Source of the DNA: Promethearchaeota archaeon
Lineage (GTDB): Archaea; Asgardarchaeota; Heimdallarchaeia; Hodarchaeales; Hodarchaeaceae
DNA: 64,000 bases
Assembly (NCBI GenBank): GCA_048938105.1
Contig: JBHLMN010000010.1
Location: 96,001-160,000, forward strand
Direction of reading: 5' to 3'
Position numbers and translations under genes: made by a program. The notes under the pieces were generated by a model that saw only the letters and a list, made by a program, of their open reading frames with translations, was not told the origin of the DNA and did not search any database. Position 1 is the stretch's first letter. Each line of letters opens with the position of its first letter. Shown here piece after piece: positions 4,694-44,221 of the stretch.

Positions 4694-5362
4694 TTAAACA
4701 CCGTATTTCCCTCTGAGGGGAACAAATGCAACTGATGATAATTTCTCTTTTTTTAATTCATTATCATTAATTTTCCAATATCGAGTCATCTGTTGCCAAA
4801 GTCCTGGCCGTCCCAAAGGCATCACTAAGCATCCATCAATCTTTAATTGATTCTTTAATGGGGGAGGAACGATTGGTCCAGCAGCAGTTAAGATAACTCG
4901 ATCATAAGGAGCTTTATCTTCATATCCTAAGGTTCCATCACCTTCAATGACTGTGACAGAACTATCGAATCCAGCACGAGTAAGGTTCTCCCTGGCAAAC
5001 TCAACTAATTTAGGTACAATTTCTATCGAATATACATGGCCAGGAGCTTCATCAGCTGCTACAATAGCTGCAATCAATGCAGCCTGGTAACCAGAACCTG
5101 CTCCTATTTCAAGGATTCTTTGGCCAGGAGCTAATTCAAGGTAATCCAAAATCATAATAGTCATGTGTGGAGCAGAAATAGTCTGTCCTGTATTCATCAA
5201 TGGTAATGGATGGTCTACATATGCGGAGGAAGCCATTTGTGTGGGAATAAACTTCTCCCGTGGAACTCGTCTGAAGGCATCAAAAGCTTTCTCGTCTTTA
5301 ACGTATCCTCTTCGCCGGTAATGATTAATTAATTGTTCTTTTACCACTGTATAGTCTGTCAT
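4694..5362 (-). CDS. pcm: Protein-L-isoaspartate O-methyltransferase
   Basis: VPREKF, GQTISAPHM, LEIGAGSGYQAA, GDGTLGY..APYDR, VAFVPLRG. Confidence 0.96.
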   Translation of the reverse strand: MTDYTVVKEQLINHYRRRGYVKDEKAFDAFRRVPREKFIPTQMASSAYVDHPLPLMNTGQTISAPHMTIMILDYLELAPGQRILEIGAGSGYQAALIAAIVAADEAPGHVYSIEIVPKLVEFARENLTRAGFDSSVTVIEGDGTLGYEDKAPYDRVILTAAGPIVPPPLKNQLKIDGCLVMPLGRPGLWQQMTRYWKINDNELKKEKLSSVAFVPLRGKYGV

Positions 5363-5407
5363 CCTAATTTCCCTTATAATTATGTAAAATCCACTTAAGA
5401 ACTTCTT

Positions 5408-6460
5408 TTAAACCAGCTGTAAATCTACATTTACTTGAACTCGAGAGGGGGAGACCTCTCTGCCTACTTTAATATATAGTTCTTTATAAGAATTAATGTT
5501 TCCTAGCTTTCTGGAGATCATATTATGAATCTGTACTTTAGGTTTCTCAAATTTTGAAATAAATTGGTAAAAAGTAATTATTCCTCCTTTTTTCAGTAAT
5601 TTTGCGGCATAAGGAAGATAATTCACTGACTCGTATGGGAGATTTATTATTATTCGATCAAAATAACCTTGAAATCTCAAAATATTTCGAGAATCCCCTA
5701 TAATAGGATGAATATTTCCTTGAAGCTTATTTCTCTTAACACTTCTTTTTAATGCATGTATTGCAGAAGGATTGATATCGATCGCGACTATTCTACATTG
5801 AGATTCTTTTGCACAATGCAAAGCAAACGATCCAACACCTGTAAACATATCTAGAATGATTTCACCAGGGTTTACAGACATAGCAACACGATGATGCTCT
5901 TCAGCCAATCGTGGGTTGAAATACGCTCGTTCAAGATCAACAAATATAAATACACCATATTCTTGATGCCAACTTTGCCAGATCTTTTTTCCTGCAAGAT
6001 ATTCTACAGGATATAGTCTTTTAGCTCCCTTAATAATGTCCCTTTTATTCAATACAGCTTTGAGGCGAGAAAATCGAGATAATATTAATTCACCCACTCG
6101 TTGACGAAATGAAAGTGTAGTTAAGGATGGATCAAGCTTCAAAACTGCGATCTCTCCTAATTGGTCGAACTTCAAAGAGATTCCATCCCAATTCAAATTT
6201 GGATATTCTTTTTGAAGACTTTCAACGATCGACTCTTGTTCTGAACGGCTTGGAAATTCCCATTTTTGAAATTTGTAAGAAATATCACCTAATATTTTAG
6301 GGATTTGTGTGGGATCATTGATAGGGAAAAATACACAATCCTGCGACTTAATTGGTTTCTTATTAGAAATAATAAGATTTGATTTAACCAAACGGAGACG
6401 TACTGCTTCAGCATCTTTGAGGGGAACACCAACTCCAAATGTTGATTGCTGACTTGCTAT
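5408..6460 (-). CDS. trm5: tRNA (guanine37-N1) methyltransferase Trm5 family (probable ATA start at 6460; ORF track starts at 6391)
   Basis: FDQLGEIAVL, VDLERAYFNPRLAEEHHR, DMFTGVGSF, IDINPSA, DRIIINLP. The N-terminal D1-like segment GVPLKDAEAVRLRL lies upstream of the TTG. Confidence 0.88.
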   Translation of the reverse strand: MASQQSTFGVGVPLKDAEAVRLRLVKSNLIISNKKPIKSQDCVFFPINDPTQIPKILGDISYKFQKWEFPSRSEQESIVESLQKEYPNLNWDGISLKFDQLGEIAVLKLDPSLTTLSFRQRVGELILSRFSRLKAVLNKRDIIKGAKRLYPVEYLAGKKIWQSWHQEYGVFIFVDLERAYFNPRLAEEHHRVAMSVNPGEIILDMFTGVGSFALHCAKESQCRIVAIDINPSAIHALKRSVKRNKLQGNIHPIIGDSRNILRFQGYFDRIIINLPYESVNYLPYAAKLLKKGGIITFYQFISKFEKPKVQIHNMISRKLGNINSYKELYIKVGREVSPSRVQVNVDLQLV

Positions 6461-6878: not shown

Positions 6879-7601
6879 ATGAGTGTCATGGTAGAAAGTG
6901 AGAAAAAAGGTAGTATTGAGATTACTGATTATTTAAATCTATTAATTGCAATAGGTAAGATGGGAGGCACTCGTCGTCCTGTGTTTAGTACAACAAGTGA
7001 ACTAGGGAAAAAAGTAGGAATTTCCCAGCAAAGTGCCTCACGAAAACTAACAAAAATGGAAAATGAACATCTTATTGTTCGTAATTATAAACAGCGAGGA
7101 AATACAATTAAGATCACCCCCAAAGGTATAAAATCACTTGAACGGGTGTTTACAGATCTATGGATGATATTGACTGCTGAGGGACGAGAACTAGCAGAAA
7201 AAATTACAGTAAAAGGAACAGTATGTACAGGAATGGGGGAAGGGGCGTATTACATGAGACAAGGAGGATATAAAAACCAGTTTACTTCACTTCTTGGTTT
7301 TGAACCTTTCATGGGTACTTTGAACTTACAACTACTAGAGGAATCTAGTTTAAGGAACTTTGAGCGTATATTACGGAGCCCATCTCAGTTTATAAAGGAA
7401 TTTACAAAAGATGGACGAAGATTTGGTAAAGTCTTTGTATGGCCAACTTACCTGTTAATAAAAAACCATAAAATACCCTCTGCTTTAATTCATCCTGATC
7501 GAACTCACCATAGCAATCAAATAGAATTAATTGCAGAAGAGAATATTAAAAAAACCTACGGAGTAAAAGATGGGGATGTCCTAGAAATTATCCTGCAATA
7601 A
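6879..7601 (+). CDS. ribK: CTP-dependent riboflavin kinase with N-terminal wHTH (RbkR-type)
   Basis: TTSELGKKVGISQQSASRKL HTH; GTVCTGMGEGAYYM, LGFEPFMGTLN, PDRTHH, IELIA. Start is uncertain (6825-6888). Confidence 0.93.
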   Translation: MSVMVESEKKGSIEITDYLNLLIAIGKMGGTRRPVFSTTSELGKKVGISQQSASRKLTKMENEHLIVRNYKQRGNTIKITPKGIKSLERVFTDLWMILTAEGRELAEKITVKGTVCTGMGEGAYYMRQGGYKNQFTSLLGFEPFMGTLNLQLLEESSLRNFERILRSPSQFIKEFTKDGRRFGKVFVWPTYLLIKNHKIPSALIHPDRTHHSNQIELIAEENIKKTYGVKDGDVLEIILQ

Positions 7602-7628
7602 TTTAAAGAGAGAAAATTCGAGAGTATC

Positions 7629-8300
7629 TTATTCGAAAGAATGTTTATCTAAATTCTTGAATTTCAAAGAGGATTTTTCTTTTGGAATTCTAGCTTTTAA
7701 TTTAACTATCTCGATATTTTGGAGATTGTTGTCACTTAAAAGTTTGGACAACCTAGCTTCTGAAAGAGATTGATCGTAACCCAATGCAATTACATCTGGT
7801 TTGATTTTAATGACTATATCTAGAAACTTTTGGGGATTAGATGTCCCCTTCTCAACAATATCAACAATATCAATATGTTTCAGTAATTCTACACGACTAG
7901 ATTGAGAATTGAGCGGGGGACGCCCTTTATTCGCTTTAACAGTTTCATCAGAAGCTACAACTACAAATAACACATCACCTAGACTTCTTGCTTCTTTCAG
8001 TGTCTTCAAATGGCCTAGATGCACAATATCAAAGACTCCACCCGTTAACACTATCTTTAAGTTGTTAATTCCACCTATTGTAATTTTATAATCTTCAGGA
8101 GGGTCTGAGACTGACTCTACCATGTGAAGGCTTTTCAATACGGATAGAAGCGTCTTTCCTTCATCTTCTGTTCGTCTCAGACTGCTGGAAAAGTCAAAAA
8201 CACTAAAACTCTCCTTCTCACATGTTAACAAGTAAGCTGTCTTTAAAAATTCTTTTAAAAGATCCTGAAACACCTCATTAGATTTTGATTCACTTTTCAT
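7629..8300 (-). CDS. ribL: FAD synthase (cytidylyltransferase family) with N-terminal wHTH-like extension
   Basis: GGVFDIVHLGHLKTLKEA, VVVASD, KGRPP, KPDVIALGYDQ; convergent with ribK. Confidence 0.85.
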   Translation of the reverse strand: MKSESKSNEVFQDLLKEFLKTAYLLTCEKESFSVFDFSSSLRRTEDEGKTLLSVLKSLHMVESVSDPPEDYKITIGGINNLKIVLTGGVFDIVHLGHLKTLKEARSLGDVLFVVVASDETVKANKGRPPLNSQSSRVELLKHIDIVDIVEKGTSNPQKFLDIVIKIKPDVIALGYDQSLSEARLSKLLSDNNLQNIEIVKLKARIPKEKSSLKFKNLDKHSFE

Positions 8301-8388
8301 CTTGAATAACCAGCAATCGACTGAGTTTTTGAATCTTGTTAAATTTTATCAGTCATAATTTTATTTGCCATATTTTTATCAGTAGGAG

Positions 8389-9201
8389 CTATTCATCTTC
8401 ACCTTGATTCGACAATGGGCCTTTCCATAAAGTATTCACAGTTTCTTCTTCAGCAAAATGCAGTGATTCAGCGCATACTATCAGAGCTTGAGGAGGCCCA
8501 ATTCGTCTCCAATCTAATGTCGCCACTTCATCAGCAGCACCCGCTGAAACAACTTCTTTTTCAGTTCCAATGCGAGCCAAACCAATCACTAGGTCAGTCT
8601 TTGTGAAAATTGCTTCTTTTCTTTTATCCTCTAATTTTAATAGAATAAAAATTGCTTCATTCACTGTGAGGAATTCTCCAGTGCTTAGGTCAATATCTAG
8701 AAGAACTAGGGTATGAGCTCCAATCTGTTTATTTAGATTGATTACTTCATAAGGAAATTCACTTGGATTATGAGGAAAAGGACAAGTTACAGTCCGACCA
8801 AAACGATACGCGGACAAGCCAGAAACAGATGCTGCAGCTGTTATTATAGAAGAATTGTGGATAATCCGACATTTAAAACCTCGTTGGATTGCAGCTATTC
8901 TGAGAGAGTTATGGGTTGTTGCAATAAATGGATCTCCTGGTATTAAAATGGCTATTGATTTCCCTTCAATTCTTTTTAGAAATAACTGGTCATCATCTTC
9001 TAAATCTCTTCGGCTAAGAATTGTCATTTTTGACTTGATTTGTTCTAAGAGAGGGGGGATTTCTTCAGGGATGAAATTAGTATAATTTTCAATAAACACC
9101 TCATCAATTCTTTTTAAAACATCAAGAGTTTCTAGAGTACAACTCTTGAGTCCTGATAATCCCATACCAATGAAAAAGAGCACTGTTTCAGCTTTACGCA
9201 C
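8389..9201 (-). CDS. dph5: Diphthine synthase
   Basis: LFFIGMGL, ENYT, GDPFIATTH, GLSAYRFGRTVT, HTLVLLDI, PPQALIV, LHFAEEE. Confidence 0.95.
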   Translation of the reverse strand: MRKAETVLFFIGMGLSGLKSCTLETLDVLKRIDEVFIENYTNFIPEEIPPLLEQIKSKMTILSRRDLEDDDQLFLKRIEGKSIAILIPGDPFIATTHNSLRIAAIQRGFKCRIIHNSSIITAAASVSGLSAYRFGRTVTCPFPHNPSEFPYEVINLNKQIGAHTLVLLDIDLSTGEFLTVNEAIFILLKLEDKRKEAIFTKTDLVIGLARIGTEKEVVSAGAADEVATLDWRRIGPPQALIVCAESLHFAEEETVNTLWKGPLSNQGEDE

Positions 9202-33149: not shown

Positions 33150-34601
33150 TTGGAAGATTTATTAGAATATGTACTAGAACTGGGGAAAGGGGATGAATAT
33201 TTAGACATTCGATTGGAATCCTTTCAAAATGTAGTTATTAAGTCAATCAACAAAGAAATAACAAAGGCATTTACTTACCAAAAAAGAGGATTGGGAGTTC
33301 GAGTATTATTTAATGGTGCCTGGGGGTTTGCCTGTACCCAAAATTTAAACAAAGAGCAACTGCAAAAAACTGTGGATATCGCCCGAAAAATGGCAACTAT
33401 CGAATCAAGCCGAACAAAAAATCCAATTCAACTAGCAGAAATTCCAATCGTAGAAGATCGGGTCGAATTAAATTGCAAAATTGATTTTAGAGAAATTAGC
33501 CTTGAAGAAAAAGTCAAAGACGTTTTACAATGGCATAATGAGATCGATATATCTGAGAACATTGTGAGAACGATTGTAGATTATGCAACTATTTCAGCAA
33601 GAAAATTCTTCTGGAGTAGTGAAGGAACGAAGATCGAATTCATTCGTCCAATTGTTAATGTAAATTTAGGAGCTGTGGCTAGAGGAACATCTGGCGTTCA
33701 GGCATATTATCAACCATGGGGAGGAACAACTCCAGATGTAGGTGGAACAGGTGGGCACGAAATACTAGGTCAAAATGGAAATCTCACTGAAACATGTCGC
33801 AGAATGGGCGAAAAAGCTCTTAATTTAGCAAATGCAAAACCAGCACCAAATCTTCGAGATGTTCCCATCGTTTTTGATCCATCTTATATGGCATTACTTG
33901 TACATGAGATTGTGGGACACCCATCTGAAGCAGATCGAGTCCTTGGTTGGGAAAGTGCCTGGGCAGGAACCACTTGGTGGAAGGGAATAAGTAAAGATGA
34001 AGGAAATCCTACTAAGATTGGATCTAAATACGTCACGGTTTATAATGATCCAACAATTCCAAACAACTTTGCTTACATGCTATATGATGATGAAGGAACC
34101 CCTTGTAAGAGAACTACACTGATTAACGAAGGGATCCTCACTGAAAGAATGCATTCGCGCGAAACAGCGGCGATTATGGACGTAAAACCGAATGGTGCCA
34201 TGAGAGCAAATACATATGAATATCATCCTATTATTCGGCAAATCAATGTATACTGGGGGATTGGAGATTGGAAGGCAGAGGAAATAATCGAAGACACAAA
34301 AGAAGGGGTCTATCTTTTGGGAGCAAACATCCCTTCTCTCGACGACCAACGATTCAATTGGGCAATTTCAAGCCAAGAAGGTTATCTTATCAAAAATGGA
34401 GAATTAACAGATCACCTTTATTCATGTACGGCAACAGCAACCACTCCAGCTTTTCTTAAAAGTATTGATGCGCTTGCTAAAGACGATCAAAACCTCTTTT
34501 GGTCAGGATGTGGAAAAGGAGACCCAATGCAAGGTGGAACAGTATCGAATGGAGGCCCAACGATGCGTGGCTTAGCAAGCCTCAAAGGACCAGGAAGCTG
34601 A
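33150..34601 (+). CDS. tldD: TldD family metalloprotease
   Basis: GLGVRVL.NGAWGFA, HEIVGHPSEADR, YDDEG, GCGKGDPMQ. Confidence 0.92.
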   Translation: MEDLLEYVLELGKGDEYLDIRLESFQNVVIKSINKEITKAFTYQKRGLGVRVLFNGAWGFACTQNLNKEQLQKTVDIARKMATIESSRTKNPIQLAEIPIVEDRVELNCKIDFREISLEEKVKDVLQWHNEIDISENIVRTIVDYATISARKFFWSSEGTKIEFIRPIVNVNLGAVARGTSGVQAYYQPWGGTTPDVGGTGGHEILGQNGNLTETCRRMGEKALNLANAKPAPNLRDVPIVFDPSYMALLVHEIVGHPSEADRVLGWESAWAGTTWWKGISKDEGNPTKIGSKYVTVYNDPTIPNNFAYMLYDDEGTPCKRTTLINEGILTERMHSRETAAIMDVKPNGAMRANTYEYHPIIRQINVYWGIGDWKAEEIIEDTKEGVYLLGANIPSLDDQRFNWAISSQEGYLIKNGELTDHLYSCTATATTPAFLKSIDALAKDDQNLFWSGCGKGDPMQGGTVSNGGPTMRGLASLKGPGS

Positions 34602-34616
34602 TAAGAGGAGATAAAG

Positions 34617-36014
34617 ATGCAAGATTATTCAGAACGTTTGGAATATGCCTTAATAAAAGCAAGGGATAAAAAAGAAACAGCTCAAGCTGAAGTTTTTCTG
34701 GGAGCTAATCATCTATTAACTATACGCTCGGCAGTAGGGAAGATTCTCGAAAGCAAAGTTATTCAGGATGCAGGTTTAGGGATACGGATTCTAACGAAAG
34801 ACCAAGGATTAGGTTTTTCCTCAACCTGCGATTTTTCCGACAAGTCTATTTCAGATGCAGTTGAAGAAGCTTTAGTATTATCAAAGTATCGGAAAATCCC
34901 TGATTACTCTTTCTCATTTCCTAAAAAAGCTACTCGGGTAAGTAAGTTCCATGATAAAAAGATCGTTGACATGATTTTTTCGTATAAAGAAGTCAACGAG
35001 CAAGTCAATCAGATGTTACAAGAGACTCTTGAACTAAATCCAGCAGTTAAAGAGGTAGCTGGTCCAACTCATCTGGTGGAATACTCTAAACAGGTCATGA
35101 ATACTAATGGTATAGACATTTCGGAGAAAGGTACATACTGGAATATTGAACTGCTAGCAGTCGCTGAATCAACTACAGACAGACGAGAAGGGTCAGATTC
35201 TTCGGCTGGATGGAATTTCAGCGAAATTAATACTGTTCCTCTTTCAAAACATGCAGTAGACATGGCAGTAACAAGTCTTGATGGTACAAAACTGCAGGCT
35301 GGTTCGTATGAAATAATTTTAAGTCCCATGTCAGTTTCAACATTCTTGCATTGGCTAGCATTGCTAACTTATCCACAAAATCAGGAAAGAAACATGCCTC
35401 TATTGAGAGATAAAATTGGTGAAGAAATCGCTTCATCGTTAATGACTGTAGGCCATGATCCTTTAACGGTACCAAGCCCCACTTCTGGATCGTATGATGA
35501 CGAAGGGGTACCAATTCAAGATCTGTGTCTAATTAAAGAGGGAGTATATAAATTAATACCCCTTGATACATTCTATGCTACTCAATTCCAAACCACATCG
35601 AATGGTACTGGATATCGAATCCTAGCAGCTTCTGGAATGACTCAGTATCCTGGCCAGCTTTATCAAAGTGAACCGTTACCTCAGCTTCCCGCAGTTTATA
35701 TGGAAGAGGGGAAAAATAGTATTGAAGAAATGATTGCGGAAACGAAACATGGTATTTACCTTGATTTCCTCCATTATGCTTATGTGACAAACGGAGGAAC
35801 TGGGGACTACACAGGGATATTAAGACAAGGAACCTTCTTAGTCAAAAATGGAGAAATAACAGAACCCATTCAAAAATGCCGTCTCTTAGACAACATCATT
35901 GAAATGGCCAAGAAAATTAAAATGATTGGTCCTAGTCGTATGGCTGGGCACTGGCGAGACATGCTGAAAGTTCCTCCAGTAAAAATATCAGAAGTGAATA
36001 TTACACCCTATTAA
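34617..36014 (+). CDS. pmbA: TldE/PmbA family protein
   Basis: GLGIRI, YDDEGVP, TGDY, NGEI; lacks HExxH; 15 nt downstream of tldD with GAGGAG SD. Confidence 0.88.
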   Translation: MQDYSERLEYALIKARDKKETAQAEVFLGANHLLTIRSAVGKILESKVIQDAGLGIRILTKDQGLGFSSTCDFSDKSISDAVEEALVLSKYRKIPDYSFSFPKKATRVSKFHDKKIVDMIFSYKEVNEQVNQMLQETLELNPAVKEVAGPTHLVEYSKQVMNTNGIDISEKGTYWNIELLAVAESTTDRREGSDSSAGWNFSEINTVPLSKHAVDMAVTSLDGTKLQAGSYEIILSPMSVSTFLHWLALLTYPQNQERNMPLLRDKIGEEIASSLMTVGHDPLTVPSPTSGSYDDEGVPIQDLCLIKEGVYKLIPLDTFYATQFQTTSNGTGYRILAASGMTQYPGQLYQSEPLPQLPAVYMEEGKNSIEEMIAETKHGIYLDFLHYAYVTNGGTGDYTGILRQGTFLVKNGEITEPIQKCRLLDNIIEMAKKIKMIGPSRMAGHWRDMLKVPPVKISEVNITPY

Positions 36015-36055: not shown

Positions 36056-36775
36056 TTAGCCTCGTGTTACAGGGAGATACGGTGCAAGTAAAGAAGCTAA
36101 TAAACCAATTTCACGATTTTGAGTATAAACGATACCAGGGCCAGTATAACGAATCACAATCCCTTCACCACCAAGGAAAAAGCTTTTCTTTCCACCTACT
36201 TTTGAGACTCTGTGTTCCATATGAGATTGAAAAGCCATCATCACACCATTGTCACAAACAAATTCTTGTCCTGGAGCTAGTTCATGACGCTCAACGAATC
36301 CATACCCACCAATCCACACATCCCCTTCCCCTTCAGCCATGATTTTAGTCAGTACAAGTCCTTCCCCACCTAACACACTCTTGAATCCACCTAATTTAGA
36401 GGTTACTGCTATGCTGGTAGTCCCACAAATATATGCATCTCTACTTAATGTCCATTCCTCACCTTTTTGAAGGTGGAAGTGAACAATATCACCAGGAGCA
36501 CCGTGTGCGAAGGCAACCATTCCCATAGGGGCGCCATCTTGGATAGAAAAAAAGTTTTGAAACATTGATTCGCCTGAGAATTTTCGTTTCAAGCCCCGCA
36601 TAATACCTCCAGAGGACTTTGTCTCCATATGAACATGACCATCCATATAAACCATAGCCCCGCCTTCTGCTCGTACCTGTTGGCCAGGCTGATCTAGGAA
36701 GATTTTAACCACAGAGAAGGCCGGACTACCCGTTATCTCATATTTTAGAAAAGAATATTCTTTATCTGCTGACAT
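36056..36775 (-). CDS. AIM24 / TIGR00266 family protein
   Basis: YEITGSPAF, VRAEGGAMVYM, GESMFQNFF, GGEGL, GYG...DNG.MMAF, GGEGIV.RYTGPG.VYTQ.R. Confidence 0.92.
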   Translation of the reverse strand: MSADKEYSFLKYEITGSPAFSVVKIFLDQPGQQVRAEGGAMVYMDGHVHMETKSSGGIMRGLKRKFSGESMFQNFFSIQDGAPMGMVAFAHGAPGDIVHFHLQKGEEWTLSRDAYICGTTSIAVTSKLGGFKSVLGGEGLVLTKIMAEGEGDVWIGGYGFVERHELAPGQEFVCDNGVMMAFQSHMEHRVSKVGGKKSFFLGGEGIVIRYTGPGIVYTQNREIGLLASLLAPYLPVTRG

Positions 36776-36904: not shown

Positions 36905-38173
36905 TCACGAAGATCTCCTTTTACGAAGATTGTACATTGTGGAACGTAATTTTTTCCTAGCAGTTTTAGAATATTTCTCTTCGTTCAACACATCGTTTAA
37001 CATCTGAACATTTTGAGTTTGTAATCTTTGAAGATTTGTTGATCCTGTTTGAGAAATTCTTCGTTCCAGCTTATCTTGAAACATATGCATAGTTCGCTGA
37101 GCTCCTGAAAAATTCCCTTGATCCGCCATCTCCATAGCCTCATATTGGACAAACGCGGCTTCTAAAAGATGCACATTTTCTAAAACTTGATCATCTTCGG
37201 TGGTTAGAAGTTTTTCATCAGATGTAGGGATAATATTACACGAAACTGGCTTGAGCTGAATTGGTTTTGTTGATCCACTTCGGGGAATCCATCGTACATT
37301 GAATGTCACAGCTTCAATTTCTTCAGCTTTTATTGGTGGAATTGTCACATCTAGGATAATTAACAATTCATTACCACTTCTGAGATCACCCATTTTCGTA
37401 CTGGACGATAAACGGTCTTCATAAGGAACTCCTAGAGCTCTTCGTATTTGAACTCCTTCTGCTTTTTGCCATTCCACCTCGATATTATAAGCAGCGGTTG
37501 CTAGAAGTCCTTGAAACTCATGTTCAATGAATTTAGGGATATCATCTGCAGTTTCAATGAAATAAAATGATCCTCCAGCCACATCAGCGATATTCACCAT
37601 TAAATCCTCGTCAAAATCGTCACCGACTCCAAAAGTGCTGATGCCTATACCTCCTTCATAAATATCAGTCACAGATTCTCGAATTCGGCCACGATCAGTG
37701 ATCCCCTCATTTGCGAGACCATCAGAAAGGAGAAGTACCACATTCCGATACTCAAGATGTTTGGCACTTTCAACCTGTTTTGCTCCTTCCACGACACCCC
37801 CATGGAGGTTTGTACGGCCACGACTACGAATGGAACGGAGGCGGGTAATAATAGAGGCAGGATTGGTTAATTTCGCTGAAGAAATAATTGTATCCACACG
37901 ATGATCGTAAATTGTTAAGGCGAAAACATCATCCTTTGAGAGATTATTGACAACAAATTCAACAGCTTCTTTAGCTTTTTGGAGCTTGGATCCGTGCATA
38001 CTCCCTGAACGATCGAGAACTACTCCTAAATTTAAGTTTGTTCTGGAAACTTGGATCTCTCTTCCTGTTAATTTTAACTGAATATAAAGATGCGTCTCAC
38101 CATCAGCTAACGCATAGGGTGAGCTTGGAGTTACCTCAATGTTAATATCCTCTTGAGTATTTACTTCTATCAT
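36905..38173 (-). CDS. vWA domain protein with intact MIDAS
   Basis: LNLGVVLDRSGSM, GRTNLHGG, LLLSDGLANEG, TFGVGDDFDEDLM, GGSFYFI. The start is likely the ATG at 38173 (AGGA SD, 10 nt after the upstream stop). Confidence 0.92.
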   Translation of the reverse strand: MIEVNTQEDINIEVTPSSPYALADGETHLYIQLKLTGREIQVSRTNLNLGVVLDRSGSMHGSKLQKAKEAVEFVVNNLSKDDVFALTIYDHRVDTIISSAKLTNPASIITRLRSIRSRGRTNLHGGVVEGAKQVESAKHLEYRNVVLLLSDGLANEGITDRGRIRESVTDIYEGGIGISTFGVGDDFDEDLMVNIADVAGGSFYFIETADDIPKFIEHEFQGLLATAAYNIEVEWQKAEGVQIRRALGVPYEDRLSSSTKMGDLRSGNELLIILDVTIPPIKAEEIEAVTFNVRWIPRSGSTKPIQLKPVSCNIIPTSDEKLLTTEDDQVLENVHLLEAAFVQYEAMEMADQGNFSGAQRTMHMFQDKLERRISQTGSTNLQRLQTQNVQMLNDVLNEEKYSKTARKKLRSTMYNLRKRRSS

Positions 38174-38183
38174 AATTATTCCT

Positions 38184-38753
38184 TCATTTGGCTTGTTCGA
38201 GCTTCTTTTGTACTTTATAAACCATTTCTCCTTTTTTTGTGAGTCTGTGGCGTTTTTTAGGACGTCCAGGCCCTCCCATTGTTTTCTTCTCAAGTGGAAA
38301 TTCTGGCTTGATTTTCTTGGGCTTACTCTTAATCTGTTCTATTAACCCAAGGTTACTTAATTTCTGCAAACCTACATTAATCGTAGTAGGAGACATTTGT
38401 GCTACTTTTTGAAGTTCAACAACATTTGCATCTTTATGTTGTTTAATTTGATGGAGAAGGGCGCGATGAGACCGTTTTAGCTCCGTTATCTCAGGATGTT
38501 GAAGAATTTGACGATCAAGGATATCTTCTGCTTGTGGAGTAATAACAAAAGTGTTAGAATCTGGAGGTTGTCTAATGATAAATCCAACCAGTTCTAATTC
38601 TTTTAATCTCCTATAAACTGTAGCAGTTGTTAGTGAATCAGAAGATTCTTTAGTAAAATGCTTGTTAATATCAGAACTACTAATAGGTTGAGACTGATTT
38701 CTAATAAATTCTAGAATCTCTTTCGTCCCCGTGGAAGCCAGTAAGTCTAACAT
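38184..38753 (-). CDS. Tandem winged-helix transcriptional regulator
   Basis: wHTH1 SLTTATVYRRLKELELVGFI; wHTH2 MSPTTINVGLQKLSNLGLI...GRPKKRHRLTKKG. Confidence 0.85.
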   Translation of the reverse strand: MLDLLASTGTKEILEFIRNQSQPISSSDINKHFTKESSDSLTTATVYRRLKELELVGFIIRQPPDSNTFVITPQAEDILDRQILQHPEITELKRSHRALLHQIKQHKDANVVELQKVAQMSPTTINVGLQKLSNLGLIEQIKSKPKKIKPEFPLEKKTMGGPGRPKKRHRLTKKGEMVYKVQKKLEQAK

Positions 38754-38777
38754 CGTTTAAAACCATTTTAATACTTC

Positions 38778-40121
38778 TTATTCATCAGAAATCTGTTCAA
38801 GAGAAATTTGTTGCTGAACTCGCGGATCCTGAATATTCTGAACCTGAATCCGAGGCATCCTAGGCACCCGACCAGGTGTTCTCCCTTTGAGAATATCGAC
38901 TTGCTTTTTGCTAGCGTATAAGTGTATAGGGGTTCCTTTGTAATGAATACTGATACCTTGCCATTTCTTGTTATTGAATCGGAATAAATCTCCGACACCA
39001 GTTGCTTTCTCTTTTTTCACCTTGATATCTTTGAATTCACCTTTCAGAAGCGCTTCTAAATTATCTGGGAGGTTCTGGTCTGTTTCTATTTTCTGCATGA
39101 AAATTCTATCAGTCAGAAATCCTTTAAGTACAACCTCACTAAATTGGGACCAAAGCTTGGGGGAGCCATAAATCTCGACACCCAATAACTTATCACTATA
39201 CGCACAGATAATGCCCATCTGATTCTCAAGCTTAGTTGCTGCAGAAAGTGTTTCTTGAAGAGTTTTGAGGTGTTTATCCTTTTCATATGATTTTTCTTGA
39301 ATCTCTCTATAACTATGAGTAGGAGCATCTTCCTCGCTGAGAGCTAATGCACCTGCTACCGCAGACACAGTTTCCCATAGGGTAGTCTGATCTCCAGCTT
39401 TCGCTGACACGTTTGCCATCTGTGAGGCCATTCGAGTTTTAGCAGACTTGAATTTTAAGGAGGTTGTTTCTCCACGAGAACTAGAATATCTCCACCGAGA
39501 CTGTTCAATGCACTTTGCGGGAATTTTTAAGGGATTAGCCTCATCATGGCCAACAGGGATGAGAATAGGCTCAAAAATGGTTCTATCTTGCTTCCCACCC
39601 TCAACTTGATGAAGATAGGGAATTAAAACGGGGAGCTCACTTTTATTAATTGCTTCGAGTAATTCGACACTCTCTGAACCTTCACTTTCTTGGATCCATG
39701 CAAGCTCCTGCTCCTCAGCCTCAAGTAAACCTAATACAAGGGTTGATACGTCACTCTTAAGAAGAGGATAAACAGAAAACTTATCATGGGTGACAGGTGT
39801 CCCAATGTCAAAATAATTTCCTAAATCTTGAATAATATCTTGAAAATTCACTTTTTTCCACCTATTATTTTTTTTTAAGACCTCCTCAGCATAAAGAGAG
39901 AGGATCAATCGATTGGAATTCGTATGTAATCTTACAATTAAGTTTGCTTGTTCTAATTCTTTGACCCTGCGGTAAATAGTTGCAGTAGTAAGTGATAAAT
40001 CAGGAGATTGAGCGAAATGAACGTTAATCATTGGCACAGTGGTACCAGGATTATGGTATAAATAAGAAAGAATCCTTAGCGACCCTTTTGCTGAGAGAAG
40101 ATCTTGGATTGTTTTCATCAT
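38778..40121 (-). CDS. wHTH fused to ARPP-1 (DUF6569) domain
   Basis: N-term SLTTATIYRRVKELEQANLI; C-term GTPVTHDKFSVYPL, INKSELPVLI, GGKQDR, IPAKCIEQSRW, DQTTLWETV, GIICAYSDKLLGVEIYGSPKLW. Confidence 0.8.
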   Translation of the reverse strand: MMKTIQDLLSAKGSLRILSYLYHNPGTTVPMINVHFAQSPDLSLTTATIYRRVKELEQANLIVRLHTNSNRLILSLYAEEVLKKNNRWKKVNFQDIIQDLGNYFDIGTPVTHDKFSVYPLLKSDVSTLVLGLLEAEEQELAWIQESEGSESVELLEAINKSELPVLIPYLHQVEGGKQDRTIFEPILIPVGHDEANPLKIPAKCIEQSRWRYSSSRGETTSLKFKSAKTRMASQMANVSAKAGDQTTLWETVSAVAGALALSEEDAPTHSYREIQEKSYEKDKHLKTLQETLSAATKLENQMGIICAYSDKLLGVEIYGSPKLWSQFSEVVLKGFLTDRIFMQKIETDQNLPDNLEALLKGEFKDIKVKKEKATGVGDLFRFNNKKWQGISIHYKGTPIHLYASKKQVDILKGRTPGRVPRMPRIQVQNIQDPRVQQQISLEQISDE

Positions 40122-40140
40122 GAATTCTCAAAAAGTGTAA

Positions 40141-40186
40141 TATTTATAAAACTTTCGAATTTATCAAATTATGGAATCAATTTGAT
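40141..40186 (-). promoter_or_regulatory. BRE-TATA promoter with upstream inverted-repeat operator for the ARPP-1 operon
   Basis: Minus strand CGAAAG-TTTTATAAATA (40141-40157), ~20-36 nt above the ATG; perfect IR ATCAAATT-N8-AATTTGAT at 40163-40186. Confidence 0.6.
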
Positions 40187-40376: not shown

Positions 40377-41132
40377 TTATTTGCTCGATTTCCTTCTTGG
40401 GAAAATTAAGACAAATGTGCATAAGACTACAAGAACTGATAATACCCCAGGAAAAGGACTTGCTGCTGTTTCTGTCTCTGTTGTTTCAGAAATTGATGGA
40501 TGAATAATCTCCACCGTGCGATCCACAGTCGTTTCCACAGTTACTGTTATTGTTACTGTTGTTCTTTCAAGCGGAGATTCAAATGAGGAATAAATGTTAA
40601 TCTTTTTCACCTTGGGTGTAAAATAAATGTTCGGATCTGATTTAAAAACCGCACGATATTTTAAATATAACGCAACACCACTAAAGGTGAAATTTGAAGA
40701 GTAATAACTGATATAATGAAAACCTTCGGCGTTGGTGGTATTTGATAACCCAACTTGGAACCTCAATTCTGTACCTACTGGTTGACCTGCTGAATACCAA
40801 GTGAAATTACCCGCTATTCGAAGAACAACTCTAAAATAGGTCAATCCTGATTCAAATGTTCCTATTAGGGGAGATGTATGACCAGGATAGAGCCAAATAT
40901 CATCATAGTAGGCACCATTATACCCTCCAAACAAGATTACTTTATCTAAACTTGTAATATAATTCATTGAAAAGCTATGTCTGGCATTTGGCAGAGTGGA
41001 CTGATTCTTTTGGTTCCAAATATTCATTGTCAAATCATAAATCCAAGTATCATCAAGGTACGTGCCATTATATCCCCCAAATAAAACTACAATATCAGCA
41101 GTGGTATCATATGCAATTGAGTGGAATTTCAC
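40377..41132 (-). pseudogene. 5'-truncated Kelch-repeat surface protein with C-terminal membrane anchor
   Basis: Begins mid-blade (HSIAYD..VVLFGGY...DTWIYD); only two Kelch repeats; no signal peptide; Thr-rich linker + SPFPG-TM-RRK tail. Confidence 0.6.
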
Positions 41133-41374: not shown

Positions 41375-42697
41375 ATGAGTGAAATACGGAATAAGTTATT
41401 GGCTACTGAGAATTTAGATCCTAAAGCCCAATCACTTCTTCTGCAATATGTTCTCGTTGATTCGATTCGATTAGTAGCGTTTAATATTTCTAGTATGTTT
41501 ATCATTTTATTTTTACTAGATACATTAGAATCAACCGAAGTGGGAATTCTCTTTGCTGTAAGCTATCTTATCCTCACATTGATTGATTATCCCACAGGTG
41601 TCTTAGGGGATCTCATTGGTTATAAGAAAGTGATGATGCTCGCTTATTTTTTTCATATCATCTCATTTATCCTACTTATATTCTCTGAGACATTCGTTCC
41701 CCTATTATTCTATAGCGCGTGTTCAGCAATTGCTTCCTCCCAAGAGAGTGGGGCCTTAGAATCGTGGTTTGATAATAATTATCGTATGTTTACACAAGCT
41801 ACGGATCCAGAGCGGCAAATATACAAAGCCTTTCAAGCAAGAATATCAATTTTAATCTATGCATTATCTGGCCTCTCCTTTATCGCCGGTGGAATGATCG
41901 CTCAATATCTTTCAAGGAAATTTCTATTCGGGGTATCTTTATTCCTCATCATTCTTGTCTTTATTTTGATAATTGGAGTAATTAAAGACTATAACTCCTT
42001 TGATCAATCGGATTTCACAATGAGGGTCTATTTTAGCCAGTTTTTGGGAGGATTTAGATTTCTTTTCTCCCAAAAAGGGATATTATTGTTTTTTGTAGGA
42101 ACAACAATTATCTGGGCTGCTAATAACAGCATTTGGGTTAATTTTTTGTTGTTTCCCATTTATGAGGGCTATTCAGGAGGTCAAGATCATACCACAGCCA
42201 TGTTTCGAGCAATCATTTTTGCCTCTGGAGTGTTATGGCAACTATTCATTGTGAAATATATCAATAAATTGACTCGGATTAAACTGTGGATTTTCATTAC
42301 GACGGCGTTTTCAAATGTGATATTTTTCTTTGCTATTTTTCTCTATTATTCATGGTTTCCCCCGATAACGTTTGATCTCATGCTACTCTTGGGGTTATTT
42401 ATTGTGTTTCAACTCCCTGGAATGTGGGAACCATTGGAATTTATATTGAGAAACCGACTCAACTTAGATCTAGTCCCTGATAATATACGCAATGCAGTCT
42501 ATTCGTTATTACCAACATTAACAACCCTGATAGGAATCCCTGGGGCACTAATTGGGGGTTATTATTTGAAATATATTGGATTTGCTGAAACAGTCCTATT
42601 TACCTCACTTTTTAGTGGACTTGGAGTTTTATTGACTGGTGTAGGCCTCCTATGGTTGCCTGAAATTAGGGAACAGATCAAGAAGGAAAGAAATTAA
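41375..42697 (+). CDS. MFS transporter
   Basis: ~12 TM; DYPTGVLGDLIGYKK motif A; SGALESW; LVPDNIRNAVYSL. Confidence 0.9.
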   Translation: MSEIRNKLLATENLDPKAQSLLLQYVLVDSIRLVAFNISSMFIILFLLDTLESTEVGILFAVSYLILTLIDYPTGVLGDLIGYKKVMMLAYFFHIISFILLIFSETFVPLLFYSACSAIASSQESGALESWFDNNYRMFTQATDPERQIYKAFQARISILIYALSGLSFIAGGMIAQYLSRKFLFGVSLFLIILVFILIIGVIKDYNSFDQSDFTMRVYFSQFLGGFRFLFSQKGILLFFVGTTIIWAANNSIWVNFLLFPIYEGYSGGQDHTTAMFRAIIFASGVLWQLFIVKYINKLTRIKLWIFITTAFSNVIFFFAIFLYYSWFPPITFDLMLLLGLFIVFQLPGMWEPLEFILRNRLNLDLVPDNIRNAVYSLLPTLTTLIGIPGALIGGYYLKYIGFAETVLFTSLFSGLGVLLTGVGLLWLPEIREQIKKERN

Positions 42698-42781
42698 CTA
42701 TTCATACTAGATAATAGGTTAAAAAAAAAAGAGGTAGAAGTATTAGTTATCTCTTTTTACGTCTTCAAATGAAAGTCTTAT

Positions 42782-44221
42782 TCATTTATTATAGGGAGCA
42801 CGCTTTTCGGCGACATATTCTTGATGACGATCTTTAATCAACATGAAGAAAGAGAAGCCAATCAAAAATAGGACTAGCAGGACAAAGATGCCAATTTTGT
42901 AGGCGAGGGCGTTGGAGCCGAAACCTTGGCCTGATGCAAAGAAGCCAATTACACCCCCGAAAAGAATGATACCGAAAGCACTACTTCCCTTGCCGGCAAG
43001 CTTACTGAAACCAAAATATTGACCAATCTTATCGGGAGGGGCAAGCTCAAGAGTCATAGTTCGTTGAACAACCCAAATGGAACCCATACCAAAGCCAACC
43101 AGAATGGCCATGAGAAAAACGGTGAAATTAGGAAGAAAGCTGAGTACGATCGGAAGCTCAACATCGGGGTCGAAACTGTCAGCGAAAATGGGAATAGCAA
43201 GCGCAATCAACCAGACAATACCTACAACTTTGGCTAGAAACTTTGGCCCTTTCTTATCAGCGATTGGACCAGCAATACCAGTCAACAAAACAGCGAAAAC
43301 GACACCAACAAGAAGTAAAATGGTAGCAGTAGTTTCATCCATCCCAAATCCTTCAACAGCTGCAGGTTTCATAATATTAATAACCGTTTGGACTACATCA
43401 ACTGCAAAAAACCAGCCAATCACAAACCAACGCATATCCTTGTAATTCCACACTTCTTTGGCTGTGTCAACAGTTTCAGATAGGGCTGAACCTAATAAGG
43501 AACGAAAACCCAACTCAGCTATTCGATTTCGGCCAGCACGCTCCCGAGACAACAAGAAGGGTAAAGCAATGAGGAGAAAACCAAGCGCATAAAGCAACCA
43601 CATTTCATTGAGATGACCAATCCACTCACTTTTAGGACCCAATACAGTTTCATATTGATCAGGGTTGATCGTACCAATATCATCAGGAAGATCCACAGCT
43701 TCAGTAAAAAACGCAATCGCAGCGAAATTGAAGATAACAGCAAAAAAAGAACCAAAATATCCTAAAGCAACACCTACAGCAGAAACCCACCCTTTATCCT
43801 TATCTTGACAGATGCGAGGAATCATGGTATCATAAAACAAATTTCCCCACTGGTAGAAGATGTTAGCAGCAATAAAACAGAATAAAGCAATAAAGAGATT
43901 ATTAAACAGGAAAACAAGACCAGTAAAAAGAATGGTGAGCGACCCAAAGAGAATAGTACCAGGTTTGCCTTTACCATTGTTATCAGCAATCGTCCCCATG
44001 ATAGGAATAGTAAGGGCAACAAGGAAGGTACTGAGAGCAATAGCTATGCTGGCTAAGAAATAACTGAGACCATAATCGAAACCATTCCACATCCCCAAGA
44101 GGGTGCCATATTGCAAGACAGTCATGGAGACAATACCCATACTGAAGACAGTATTGGCAATATCATAGGAAGACCAGAGAAGAACATTGAGTTTAGACGT
44201 AGGGGGAGAGGGATCAGACAT
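42782..44221 (-). CDS. MFS transporter, ATG22/UMF1 (BtlA)-like
   Basis: WSSYDIANT, PIMGTIAD, FYDTMIP, VSAVGVALGYFG, GPIADKKGPK, GQYFGFSKLAGKGSSAFG. Confidence 0.9.
   Translation of the reverse strand: MSDPSPPTSKLNVLLWSSYDIANTVFSMGIVSMTVLQYGTLLGMWNGFDYGLSYFLASIAIALSTFLVALTIPIMGTIADNNGKGKPGTILFGSLTILFTGLVFLFNNLFIALFCFIAANIFYQWGNLFYDTMIPRICQDKDKGWVSAVGVALGYFGSFFAVIFNFAAIAFFTEAVDLPDDIGTINPDQYETVLGPKSEWIGHLNEMWLLYALGFLLIALPFLLSRERAGRNRIAELGFRSLLGSALSETVDTAKEVWNYKDMRWFVIGWFFAVDVVQTVINIMKPAAVEGFGMDETTATILLLVGVVFAVLLTGIAGPIADKKGPKFLAKVVGIVWLIALAIPIFADSFDPDVELPIVLSFLPNFTVFLMAILVGFGMGSIWVVQRTMTLELAPPDKIGQYFGFSKLAGKGSSAFGIILFGGVIGFFASGQGFGSNALAYKIGIFVLLVLFLIGFSFFMLIKDRHQEYVAEKRAPYNK

Follow-up and report, generated by a model that had tools for sequence, protein, structure and literature searches.

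The vWA-domain protein ArnB of Sulfolobus acidocaldarius has a tripartite architecture of vWA domain, beta-sandwich and helix bundle; the zinc ribbon of its partner ArnA binds the beta1-beta2 loop of the ArnB sandwich together with the linker to the helical bundle, ArnAB was not found to bind DNA, and it is probable that other DNA-binding proteins act downstream (PMC6509490, PMC12852372). The same two papers mention structural relatives of ArnAB in Heimdallarchaeota. The ARPP family was defined in systems centred on ADP-ribosylglycohydrolase (ARG) and ADP-ribose, which are predicted to be anti-viral (Iyer, Burroughs, Anantharaman and Aravind 2022, PMC9503650); its characteristic fold is a duplicated beta-meander with an inserted barrel, and these authors note an absolutely conserved Cys and Gln, propose an enzyme that acts upon ribose or another kind of sugar moiety, and list as partners ARG, rhodanese-phosphatases, HIRAN, a WYL transcription factor and a deacetylase, with neither a vWA protein nor a fused winged helix-turn-helix (wHTH) among them. 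Here we describe a three-gene operon in which an ARPP-1 domain, two wHTH proteins and an ArnB-type vWA protein come together. It occupies positions 36905 to 40186 of a 64,000-nucleotide stretch (the window, in whose coordinates all positions below are given) of contig JBHLMN010000010.1 from a Promethearchaeota archaeon of the Hodarchaeales. Gene 1 encodes a wHTH head fused to ARPP-1, gene 2 a tandem wHTH protein, and gene 3 the vWA protein (Table 1).

The reading that we favor, tentatively and a little short of an even chance, is that the operon is a lineage-specific self-repressing switch, in which wHTH proteins sit on twin boxes, an ArnB-like adaptor clamps the helix that they share, and ARPP-1 is an optional input or output. 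It would start from two paralogous heads with the same reading helix, one fused to ARPP-1 and the other at the N-terminus of the gene 2 protein. These wHTH proteins would bind 17-nt boxes flanking the operon's own TATA box, and occupancy of the second box would shut the promoter; the vWA protein would capture the shared helix in the groove that its N-terminal beta-hairpin and helical bundle form with the sandwich-to-bundle linker, and the regulators would either be taken off the DNA or be assembled into one complex. ARPP-1, as a probable Cys/Gln-dependent enzyme or a binder of a sugar- or nucleotide-type ligand, would be tethered to this hub through its fused head. The gene order, domain identities, head paralogy, ArnB-type fold, conserved module-specific boxes and co-occurrence are computed, and the vWA-head interface is modelled; repression, sequestration, the head or domain that reads the boxes, and any role of ARPP-1 or of ADP-ribose are what we infer.

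All three genes are carried by the minus strand, with gaps of 24 nt between genes 1 and 2 and 10 nt between genes 2 and 3, so that the compact, co-oriented arrangement described in an earlier reading of this DNA from its letters alone (hereafter the sequence-only reading) is borne out by the open reading frame coordinates. That reading had also taken gene 2 for a double wHTH whose first domain is paralogous to the head of gene 1, and both points hold: gene 2 gives two separate profile matches, and the heads of genes 1 and 2 are 37% identical over 83 aa (BLASTP E 3e-16). Their reading helices, LTTATIYRRVKELE and LTTATVYRRLKELE, are near-identical and have in common the pattern LTTAT[IV]YRR[LV]KELE. 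The gene 1 N-terminus has weak wHTH matches in Pfam, and in the AlphaFold2 (AF2) model of the protein (predicted local distance difference test score, pLDDT, 83) residues 1-98 align with HxlR, PadR, MarR and ArsR winged helices at Z 10-12 (VIA-align). Residues 98-150 of gene 2 score 33.2 bits against MarR (cut-off 24.6) and 32.2 bits against TrmB (cut-off 25.6), both exceeding the curated cut-offs; a match of gene 2 to Lrs14 has 38.1 bits, under the equivalog cut-off of 90. The second wHTH is followed by an AT-hook, PGRPKKRHRLTKKG, with a GRP core flanked by basic residues, in which G163, R164 and P165 are invariant in 27 homologues. Homologues of the tandem-wHTH protein form 53 clusters, and all of those with a named source come from metagenome-assembled genomes (MAGs) of the Heimdall group or other Asgard archaea. 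We also considered an ESCRT-II-like reading of the tandem wHTH and set it aside, as the DNA-type profile matches, the AT-hook and the operator speak for DNA binding instead.

The promoter of gene 1 contains three conserved blocks, the BRE (transcription factor B recognition element)-like and TATA block and two putative operator boxes on either side of it. The boxes follow the 17-nt consensus ATTACAnnnTTTGAKAA; box 1 matches ATTACANNNTTTGAKAA with one mismatch, and box 2 alone, in the whole genome of 5.85 Mb, fits the box pattern exactly. Since the ATG of gene 1, at 40121, lies about 22 nt downstream of the TATA box, the mRNA probably has no leader, its start being placed from sequence. A 14-nt core of the box is present at module promoters of all three architecture types described below, and is inverted in some lineages. 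Within 680 kb of loci the sole extra copy of this core is about 430 nt upstream in the G067 locus (L002/L013), and there is none in the many loci that have ARPP-1 alone or an ArsR-ARPP-1 pair. The box occurs only where there is a tandem-wHTH gene. The simplest interpretation is autoregulation, and the location of box 2 between the TATA box and the start codon suggests repression by proteins bound there. Either the shared head or the second wHTH of gene 2 together with its AT-hook could read the box. The shared operator proposed in the sequence-only reading was an 8-8-8 palindrome, ATCAAATT-N8-AATTTGAT; the palindrome is present, with its right arm overlapping box 1, and we reject it as the operator since its left arm is conserved in none of the orthologous promoters, in which the 17-nt box repeats are conserved instead.

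Gene 3 was described in the sequence-only reading as a vWA protein with an intact MIDAS (metal ion-dependent adhesion site), and we agree: it matches Pfam VWA (PF00092) with E 7e-20, and the MIDAS residues D54, S56, S58, T121 and D151 are invariant in 40 gene 3 homologues. A PDB sequence search recovers 8s05_A and 5a8j_A, and the same proteins are found by Foldseek with the gene 3 model, the top match being 8s05_A, which is ArnB in the ArnAB complex (E 2.9e-26; TM-score on the query, TMq, 0.72), with the bacterial vWA protein 4fx5 (E 7.9e-25, TMq 0.73) and the ArnB paralogue vWA2, 5a8j (E 9.9e-22, TMq 0.63), also matched. The AF2 secondary structure and these matches agree on the ArnB-type topology, in which the vWA domain is inserted in the beta-sandwich and a C-terminal helical bundle follows. 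Full-length bacterial homologues are 30-36% identical to gene 3 and some have an N-terminal FHA domain, which places gene 3 in a prokaryote-wide adaptor family. To judge by its model, gene 3 is thus an ArnB-type tripartite adaptor, with no evident effector character and no specific relationship to Sec23/24.

A model of the complex of genes 3 and 2, built from custom alignments of both proteins, scores 0.71 (0.71, 0.68 and 0.72 in separate runs), compared with 0.01 for the best of three controls; among 80 solved complexes 58 attain this mark, and among 110 mismatched pairs 2 do so, counts that are only roughly valid with custom alignments. The runs have at least 70% of contacts in common, with a partner pLDDT of at least 74. 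On the gene 3 side the predicted contacts fall in the N-terminal hairpin (residues 17-30), the sandwich-to-bundle linker (320-326) and the bundle (364-375); on the gene 2 side they fall at residues 3-9 and 26-51, with the shared helix among them. Gene 3 residues S17, S18, A21, G25, T27, H28, Y30, E320, L323 and E326 are invariant or nearly so in 20 Asgard orthologues, a set that takes in vWA proteins 47-52% identical from loci in which gene 1 has no ARPP-1 part (type II below), and the patch S17-Y30 and E320-E326 is not conserved in distant gene 3 homologues. This conservation is, at the sequence level, independent support for the predicted vWA-head contact. As the partner in the model is a winged helix and not a zinc ribbon, the score is unlikely to reflect a mere likeness to 8S05. 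Of the 23 residues through which gene 2 makes contact, gene 1 has the same residue at 13, the whole LTTAT.YR..K stretch included, compared with 37% identity of the heads overall, and the gene 1 head could therefore fit the same gene 3 groove. The sequence-only reading had cast the vWA protein as the effector under control; with its adaptor fold, and a predicted binding to the shared helix, gene 3 looks like a component of the switch rather than its output.

The closest homologues of these proteins are in MAGs labelled Hodarchaeales or Heimdallarchaeota by their sources, and the tandem-wHTH gene is found in 18 of the 21 genomes of the genus-level group (this genome counted) and in none of 61 elsewhere in the class. 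Orthologues of the vWA protein are present in 15 of the 21, with one distant match (34% identity) outside the group, and the two genes are adjacent in all 14 genomes of this clade that hold both. Three types of architecture can be distinguished, in all of which the tandem-wHTH gene is the constant element. Type I has the wHTH-ARPP-1 fusion, the tandem wHTH and the vWA protein, and is found in this genome, G057, G060, G065, G067, G068, G072, G073 and G075, and probably in G076, where the contig ends; the three-gene arrangement is thus conserved in 9-10 genomes of the clade, with ARPP-1 domains 46-78% identical to that of this genome. The contig end in G060 falls inside the ARPP-1 gene, and its head cannot be read. 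Type II has a stand-alone homologue of the gene 1 head, of about 122 aa, with the tandem wHTH and the vWA protein (G058, G061, G062, G063, G064 and the metagenome contig L030, whose 122-aa protein matches the gene 1 head with E 2e-9); as for ARPP-1, G061 and G063 encode it at another place, and no copy was found in G058, G062 or G064. Type III has ARPP-1 and the tandem wHTH, and no vWA orthologue was found anywhere in these genomes (G066, G070, G071 and G074); a gene 1-type head is absent in G066 and G071 and unreadable in G070 and G074, where a contig end cuts the ARPP-1 gene. A gene 1-type head, fused or free, therefore accompanies every vWA-bearing locus that can be read, and is absent from both readable genomes lacking the vWA gene.

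In the G066 locus the gene 1 orthologue (L006, about 7394-8520 of G066:C1:1110000-1126000) lacks most of the head through an internal deletion that keeps the frame, and the vWA gene is missing with the promoter and both boxes kept; this looks like a natural double loss of head and vWA protein. In a quick maximum-likelihood search, the tree of ARPP-1 domains places all fused forms in one clade (Shimodaira-Hasegawa-like approximate likelihood ratio test support 96), within which the head was later lost or split off at least three times. In a departure from the sequence-only reading, ARPP-1 is optional for the module, because the five genomes and one metagenome contig of type II have the stand-alone wHTH, tandem wHTH and vWA protein without a fused ARPP-1. 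We note some irregularities among the type I loci: in G068 (L008) the gene 1 head (8047-8355) and the ARPP-1 part are in different frames and the vWA match (5168-6438) is in two pieces with internal stops, and the vWA matches in G060 and G073 have single internal stops. These could be decay or assembly errors.

Several observations weigh against the self-repressing switch. The vWA-head interface is a model, and the invariant MIDAS lies outside it, so that its ligand is unaccounted for by the model. Type III genomes retain the same helix without any vWA gene, and the helix therefore has a role independent of the vWA protein, which fits DNA reading without proving it. If the shared helix were a protein-docking surface only, the second wHTH and AT-hook would have to read the box, and sequestration would be void. 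At up to one mismatch, there are 41 box matches in the genome compared with 19 in the control, and since this is only a twofold excess no wider regulon is evident and we name no other targets. Lastly, ArnB, whose C-terminal bundle is phosphorylated, is regulated by phosphorylation and an FHA partner, and the operon has no gene for an FHA, zinc-ribbon or kinase protein.

The identity of the gene 1 C-terminal domain as ARPP-1, proposed from its motifs in the sequence-only reading, is secure: it matches Pfam PF20208 with E 4.9e-42 and 144.7 bits (cut-off 27), over positions 3-296 of 297 in the profile, and the motifs GGKQDR (175-180), CIEQSRW (204-210) and Q..LW (245-249) are all present. Among 39 Asgard homologues G175, G176, Q178, D179, R180, C204, E206, R209, W210, Q245, W249, Q301 and E316, with others, are invariant, and the conserved Cys and Gln of the ARPP family are represented by C204 and by Q178, Q245 and Q301. 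The invariant C204, Q178, D179, R180, E206, R209, Q245, Q301 and E316 resemble the residues of a catalytic site more than those of a passive pocket for sensing, although ARPP-1 may sense a ligand all the same. Foldseek and VIA-align of the whole gene 1 model against the PDB matched the wHTH head and nothing else; a PDB sequence search with gene 1 gave no match, and for the ARPP-1 family as a whole such a search gave no solved structure and the literature searched no tested function. The structural neighbours of an Atlas model of ARPP-1 are other ARPP-1 clusters only (TM 0.80-0.81), and an Atlas feature search with PF20208 left out produced no usable hit. There is a single copy of ARPP-1 in the genome. 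Neither an ARG nor a phosphatase gene is near the operon, in accord with the absence of ADP-ribose enzymes noted in the sequence-only reading; the two ARG genes of the genome are on contigs C27 and C63, and PADLOC has no defence family for ARPP-1, the vWA protein or the neighbouring AIM24 protein. We accordingly regard ARPP-1 as probably an enzyme and, if not that, as a domain that binds a small molecule; it may either supply a signal to the module or be the activity that the module regulates. The gene 1 C-terminal tail is disordered (pLDDT below 50) and ends in a conserved acidic P/L-E-Q-I motif, which is common to ARPP-1 homologues with and without a vWA partner and is a candidate short linear motif, conceivably a MIDAS ligand.

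More widely, ARPP-1 is present in 173 of 399 sampled Asgard genomes, and a profile search across the family returned 6687 representative clusters, for the most part proteins that consist of this one domain and are about 300-360 aa long. Orthologues in Thor- and Loki-labelled genomes are stand-alone genes, 44-50% identical and flanked by MFS (major facilitator superfamily) transporter and acetyl-CoA synthetase genes. A more distant group, with about 30% identity and a length of about 345 aa, occurs widely among genomes labelled Promethearchaeota by NCBI, and here an ArsR-type HTH_20 gene (136-148 aa) ends within a few nucleotides of the ARPP-1 start; this pair recurs in L025, L027, L033-L036, L039 and L050, and many such genomes gave two ARPP-1 matches. 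In the sampled loci, the upstream neighbour of ARPP-1 is a clear HTH_20 or HTH_5 gene in 9 of 18, with weak wHTH matches in three more, and there is an independent wHTH-ARPP-1 fusion (P0063). The ArsR-ARPP-1 pairs and the independent fusion indicate that the link between ARPP-1 and winged helices is old and recurrent in Asgard archaea; the link between ARPP-1 and the vWA protein is specific to this genus-level clade. No vWA-ARPP-1 fusion is among the top 150 of the 6687 representatives, and in six ARPP-1 matches with extra sequence that were scanned (P0337, P0362, P0428, P0403, P0302 and P0304) the extra part has no Pfam family.

The recurrent link to wHTH genes is one of the arguments for the mechanism put forward in the sequence-only reading, in which gene 1 acts as a one-component regulator, with ARPP-1 as the domain for sensing an ADP-ribose- or NAD-type ligand, and competes or heterodimerizes with gene 2 on a shared operator to control a vWA effector. 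It has in its favor that a DNA-binding head and ARPP-1 share one polypeptide here and, independently, in P0063, that PMC9503650 pairs ARPP with a WYL transcription factor and links it to ADP-ribose systems, and that identical helices suit a box present twice. We nonetheless consider it unlikely, given that the vWA protein has an adaptor fold and is a predicted head binder, that G058, G062 and G064, in which no ARPP-1 was found, have the module, that the dense invariant polar residues, Cys included, look catalytic (an enzyme being also the proposal of PMC9503650), and that no ADP-ribose enzyme is linked.

The breadth of ARPP-1 in Asgard genomes, and its degree of conservation between Heimdall-, Thor- and Loki-labelled genomes, would suit a plainer account in which ARPP-1 is a housekeeping sugar or nucleotide enzyme, gene 2 a dedicated autorepressor, and the vWA protein an accessory assembly or docking factor outside transcription control. 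The type III loci, which are ARPP-1 and tandem wHTH only, and the housekeeping synteny (MFS, ARPP-1 and acetyl-CoA synthetase; TldD/PmbA) also fit it. What it leaves unexplained is the constant order of the vWA gene after the tandem-wHTH gene (14 of 14), the persistence of stand-alone wHTH, tandem wHTH and vWA protein without ARPP-1, and the covariation of the interface patch with the presence of the partner; we rate it as distinctly unlikely. That the operon is instead an anti-virus conflict module akin to the ARG-centred systems in which ARPP was defined, with ARPP-1 as effector or processor and the vWA protein as sensor or adaptor, is highly improbable, for in addition to the lack of PADLOC matches, ARPP-1 is single copy and strongly conserved rather than rapidly evolving, it is in stable synteny with housekeeping genes, and no ARG, phosphatase, nuclease or helicase gene is adjacent. 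The idea that the vWA protein is a proto-COPII component, a relative of the Sec23/24 core in the membrane traffic of a close archaeal relative of eukaryotes, can hardly be credited, since despite Foldseek matches to Sec24/Sec23 of the COPII inner coat (E about 1e-14, TMq 0.5-0.6) and the description of ArnAB as an archaeal counterpart of that core (PMC12852372), gene 3 is nearer to crenarchaeal ArnB and bacterial 4fx5, has full-length bacterial homologues, consists of trunk, sandwich and helical parts only with no zinc finger or gelsolin domain, and is encoded alongside DNA-binding proteins in a single genus-level clade.

Table 1. Coordinates of the operon, its promoter elements and flanking genes in the window
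Feature	Residues	Position	Strand	Description
Gene 1		38778..40121	-	447 aa; wHTH head and ARPP-1 domain
Gene 1 wHTH head	1-98	39828..40121	-	reading helix SLTTATIYRRVKELE at 39951-39995
ARPP-1 domain	105-403	38913..39809	-	Pfam; alignment of 39 Asgard homologues
Gene 1 C-terminal tail		38781-38873	-
Gene 2		38184..38753	-	189 aa; tandem wHTH with basic AT-hook tail; Pfam, NCBIfam
Gene 2 head	1-80	38592-38636 (shared helix)	-	FUR/HTH_11 match, residues 11-62
Gene 2 second wHTH	92-150	38304-38480	-	MarR/TrmB/Lrs14-like
Gene 2 AT-hook, GRPKKR	160-175	38229-38276	-	alignment of homologues
Gene 3		36905..38173	-	422 aa; AF2 pLDDT 91.8
Gene 3 N-terminal sandwich strands	1-46
Gene 3 vWA domain	47-224
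Gene 3 beta-sandwich	226-317
Gene 3 helical bundle	320-418
Gene 3 MIDAS, DRSGS		38000-38014	-	intact
Operator box 1 (putative)		40161..40177	-	ATTCCATAATTTGATAA; directly upstream of BRE/TATA; conserved in 9 aligned orthologous promoters
BRE-like element and TATA box		40143..40157	-	CGAAAG and TTTATAAA; block conserved in orthologues
Operator box 2 (putative)		40125..40141	-	ATTACACTTTTTGAGAA; TATA-to-start-codon interval; conserved in orthologues
8-8-8 palindrome (rejected as operator)		40163..40186	.
AIM24/TIGR00266 family gene		36056-36775	-	own TATA-like element
TldD/PmbA metallopeptidase gene pair		33150-36014	+
Kelch-repeat protein gene		40377-41132	-	C-terminal hydrophobic segment
Two MFS/ATG22-type transporter genes		41375-44221

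The neighbours of the operon are the AIM24, TldD/PmbA, Kelch and MFS genes. Downstream of the vWA gene, after a spacer of 129 nt, comes the AIM24 family gene. Most type I loci have it after the module, as do G066 and G074; type II loci and the ARPP-only locus L052 lack it. The pair of TldD/PmbA genes is syntenic with the module across the clade, and adjoins the unfused ARPP-1 in L052. The Kelch and MFS genes flank the operon on its other side; MFS genes are also near the stand-alone ARPP-1 in the Thor- and Loki-labelled loci (L003 and L004), the Kelch gene in the Thor-labelled locus only, and these neighbours may be a remnant of old synteny.

To our knowledge, the route by which the ArnB-type vWA regulators of Sulfolobus reach DNA has not been established, and the module described here, although its reach is limited to one genus-level clade, may show how such regulators do so. 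With an ArnB-like protein encoded together with two DNA-binding proteins, a clear operator and a specific predicted interface, it is a small testable system of three proteins and one 60-bp promoter, and the fusion of ARPP-1 to a regulator head offers a route to the ligand or substrate of ARPP-1. A more general proposal, which we regard as doubtful, is that adaptors of the ArnB and Sec23/24-core type are anti-repressors that clamp the DNA-reading helix of winged-helix factors through the groove used for zinc ribbons in ArnA-ArnB and in Sec23/24, one adaptor here arbitrating between two paralogous heads of which one bears ARPP-1. If true, it would fill in the logic of DNA-binding partners that ArnB-type regulators have lacked, and provide a first experimental handle on ARPP-1.

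Comparison with the described systems shows how far each likeness extends. Gene 3 resembles ArnB of the S. acidocaldarius ArnA-ArnB pair (PDB 8S05, 5A8J) in its tripartite fold with an intact MIDAS, in being encoded beside a small partner, and in a link to the control of gene expression. Its partner is, moreover, predicted to dock at the N-terminal hairpin and the sandwich-to-bundle linker, the elements that grip the zinc ribbon of ArnA; this topological equivalence of the groove elements is drawn from the published description of ArnAB rather than from a superposition. The partner of gene 3 is a winged-helix protein, whereas ArnA is a zinc-ribbon/FHA protein, and with neither an FHA or kinase gene nor a zinc-ribbon gene in this operon, phospho-control is not indicated. 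The module also includes DNA-binding domains and an operator, whereas no DNA binding was found for ArnAB by its authors; ARPP-1 is attached here, and the identity of gene 3 to ArnB is only 16-18%. The bacterial FHA-vWA fusions and the YfbK or 4FX5-type vWA proteins are homologous to gene 3 over their full length and have the same fold, but their partner domain is FHA, and the gene 3 patch S17-Y30 and E320-E326 is not conserved in them.

Likewise, ARPP-1 of this operon clearly belongs to the ARPP family of the ARG-centred systems, with its conserved Cys and Gln, and is paired with a transcription factor in a manner reminiscent of the two-gene ARPP and WYL neighbourhood (PMC9503650). Unlike in those systems, none of ARG, rhodanese-phosphatase, Macro, NADAR, HIRAN and deacetylase is a partner here; the part of transcription factor falls to a fused wHTH or an adjacent ArsR-type gene and not to WYL, the link to a vWA protein does not figure in PMC9503650, and Asgard ARPP-1 behaves as a conserved single-copy housekeeping gene rather than a rapidly evolving conflict gene. 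With the autoregulated archaeal repressors of the MarR, ArsR and Lrs14 types the module shares wHTH domains, operator copies that flank the BRE/TATA block and overlap the start, and a dedicated local target; it departs from them in having one reading helix in two proteins, a tandem wHTH with an AT-hook, and a vWA partner predicted to cover the helix. Each part of the operon is thus a member of a known family. What is new, none of it found in the literature searched (nor was the exact architecture, as the sequence-only reading had supposed), is the three-part combination, a winged helix as partner to an ArnB-type adaptor, the capture predicted for a helix that reads DNA, and the module-specific twin operator.

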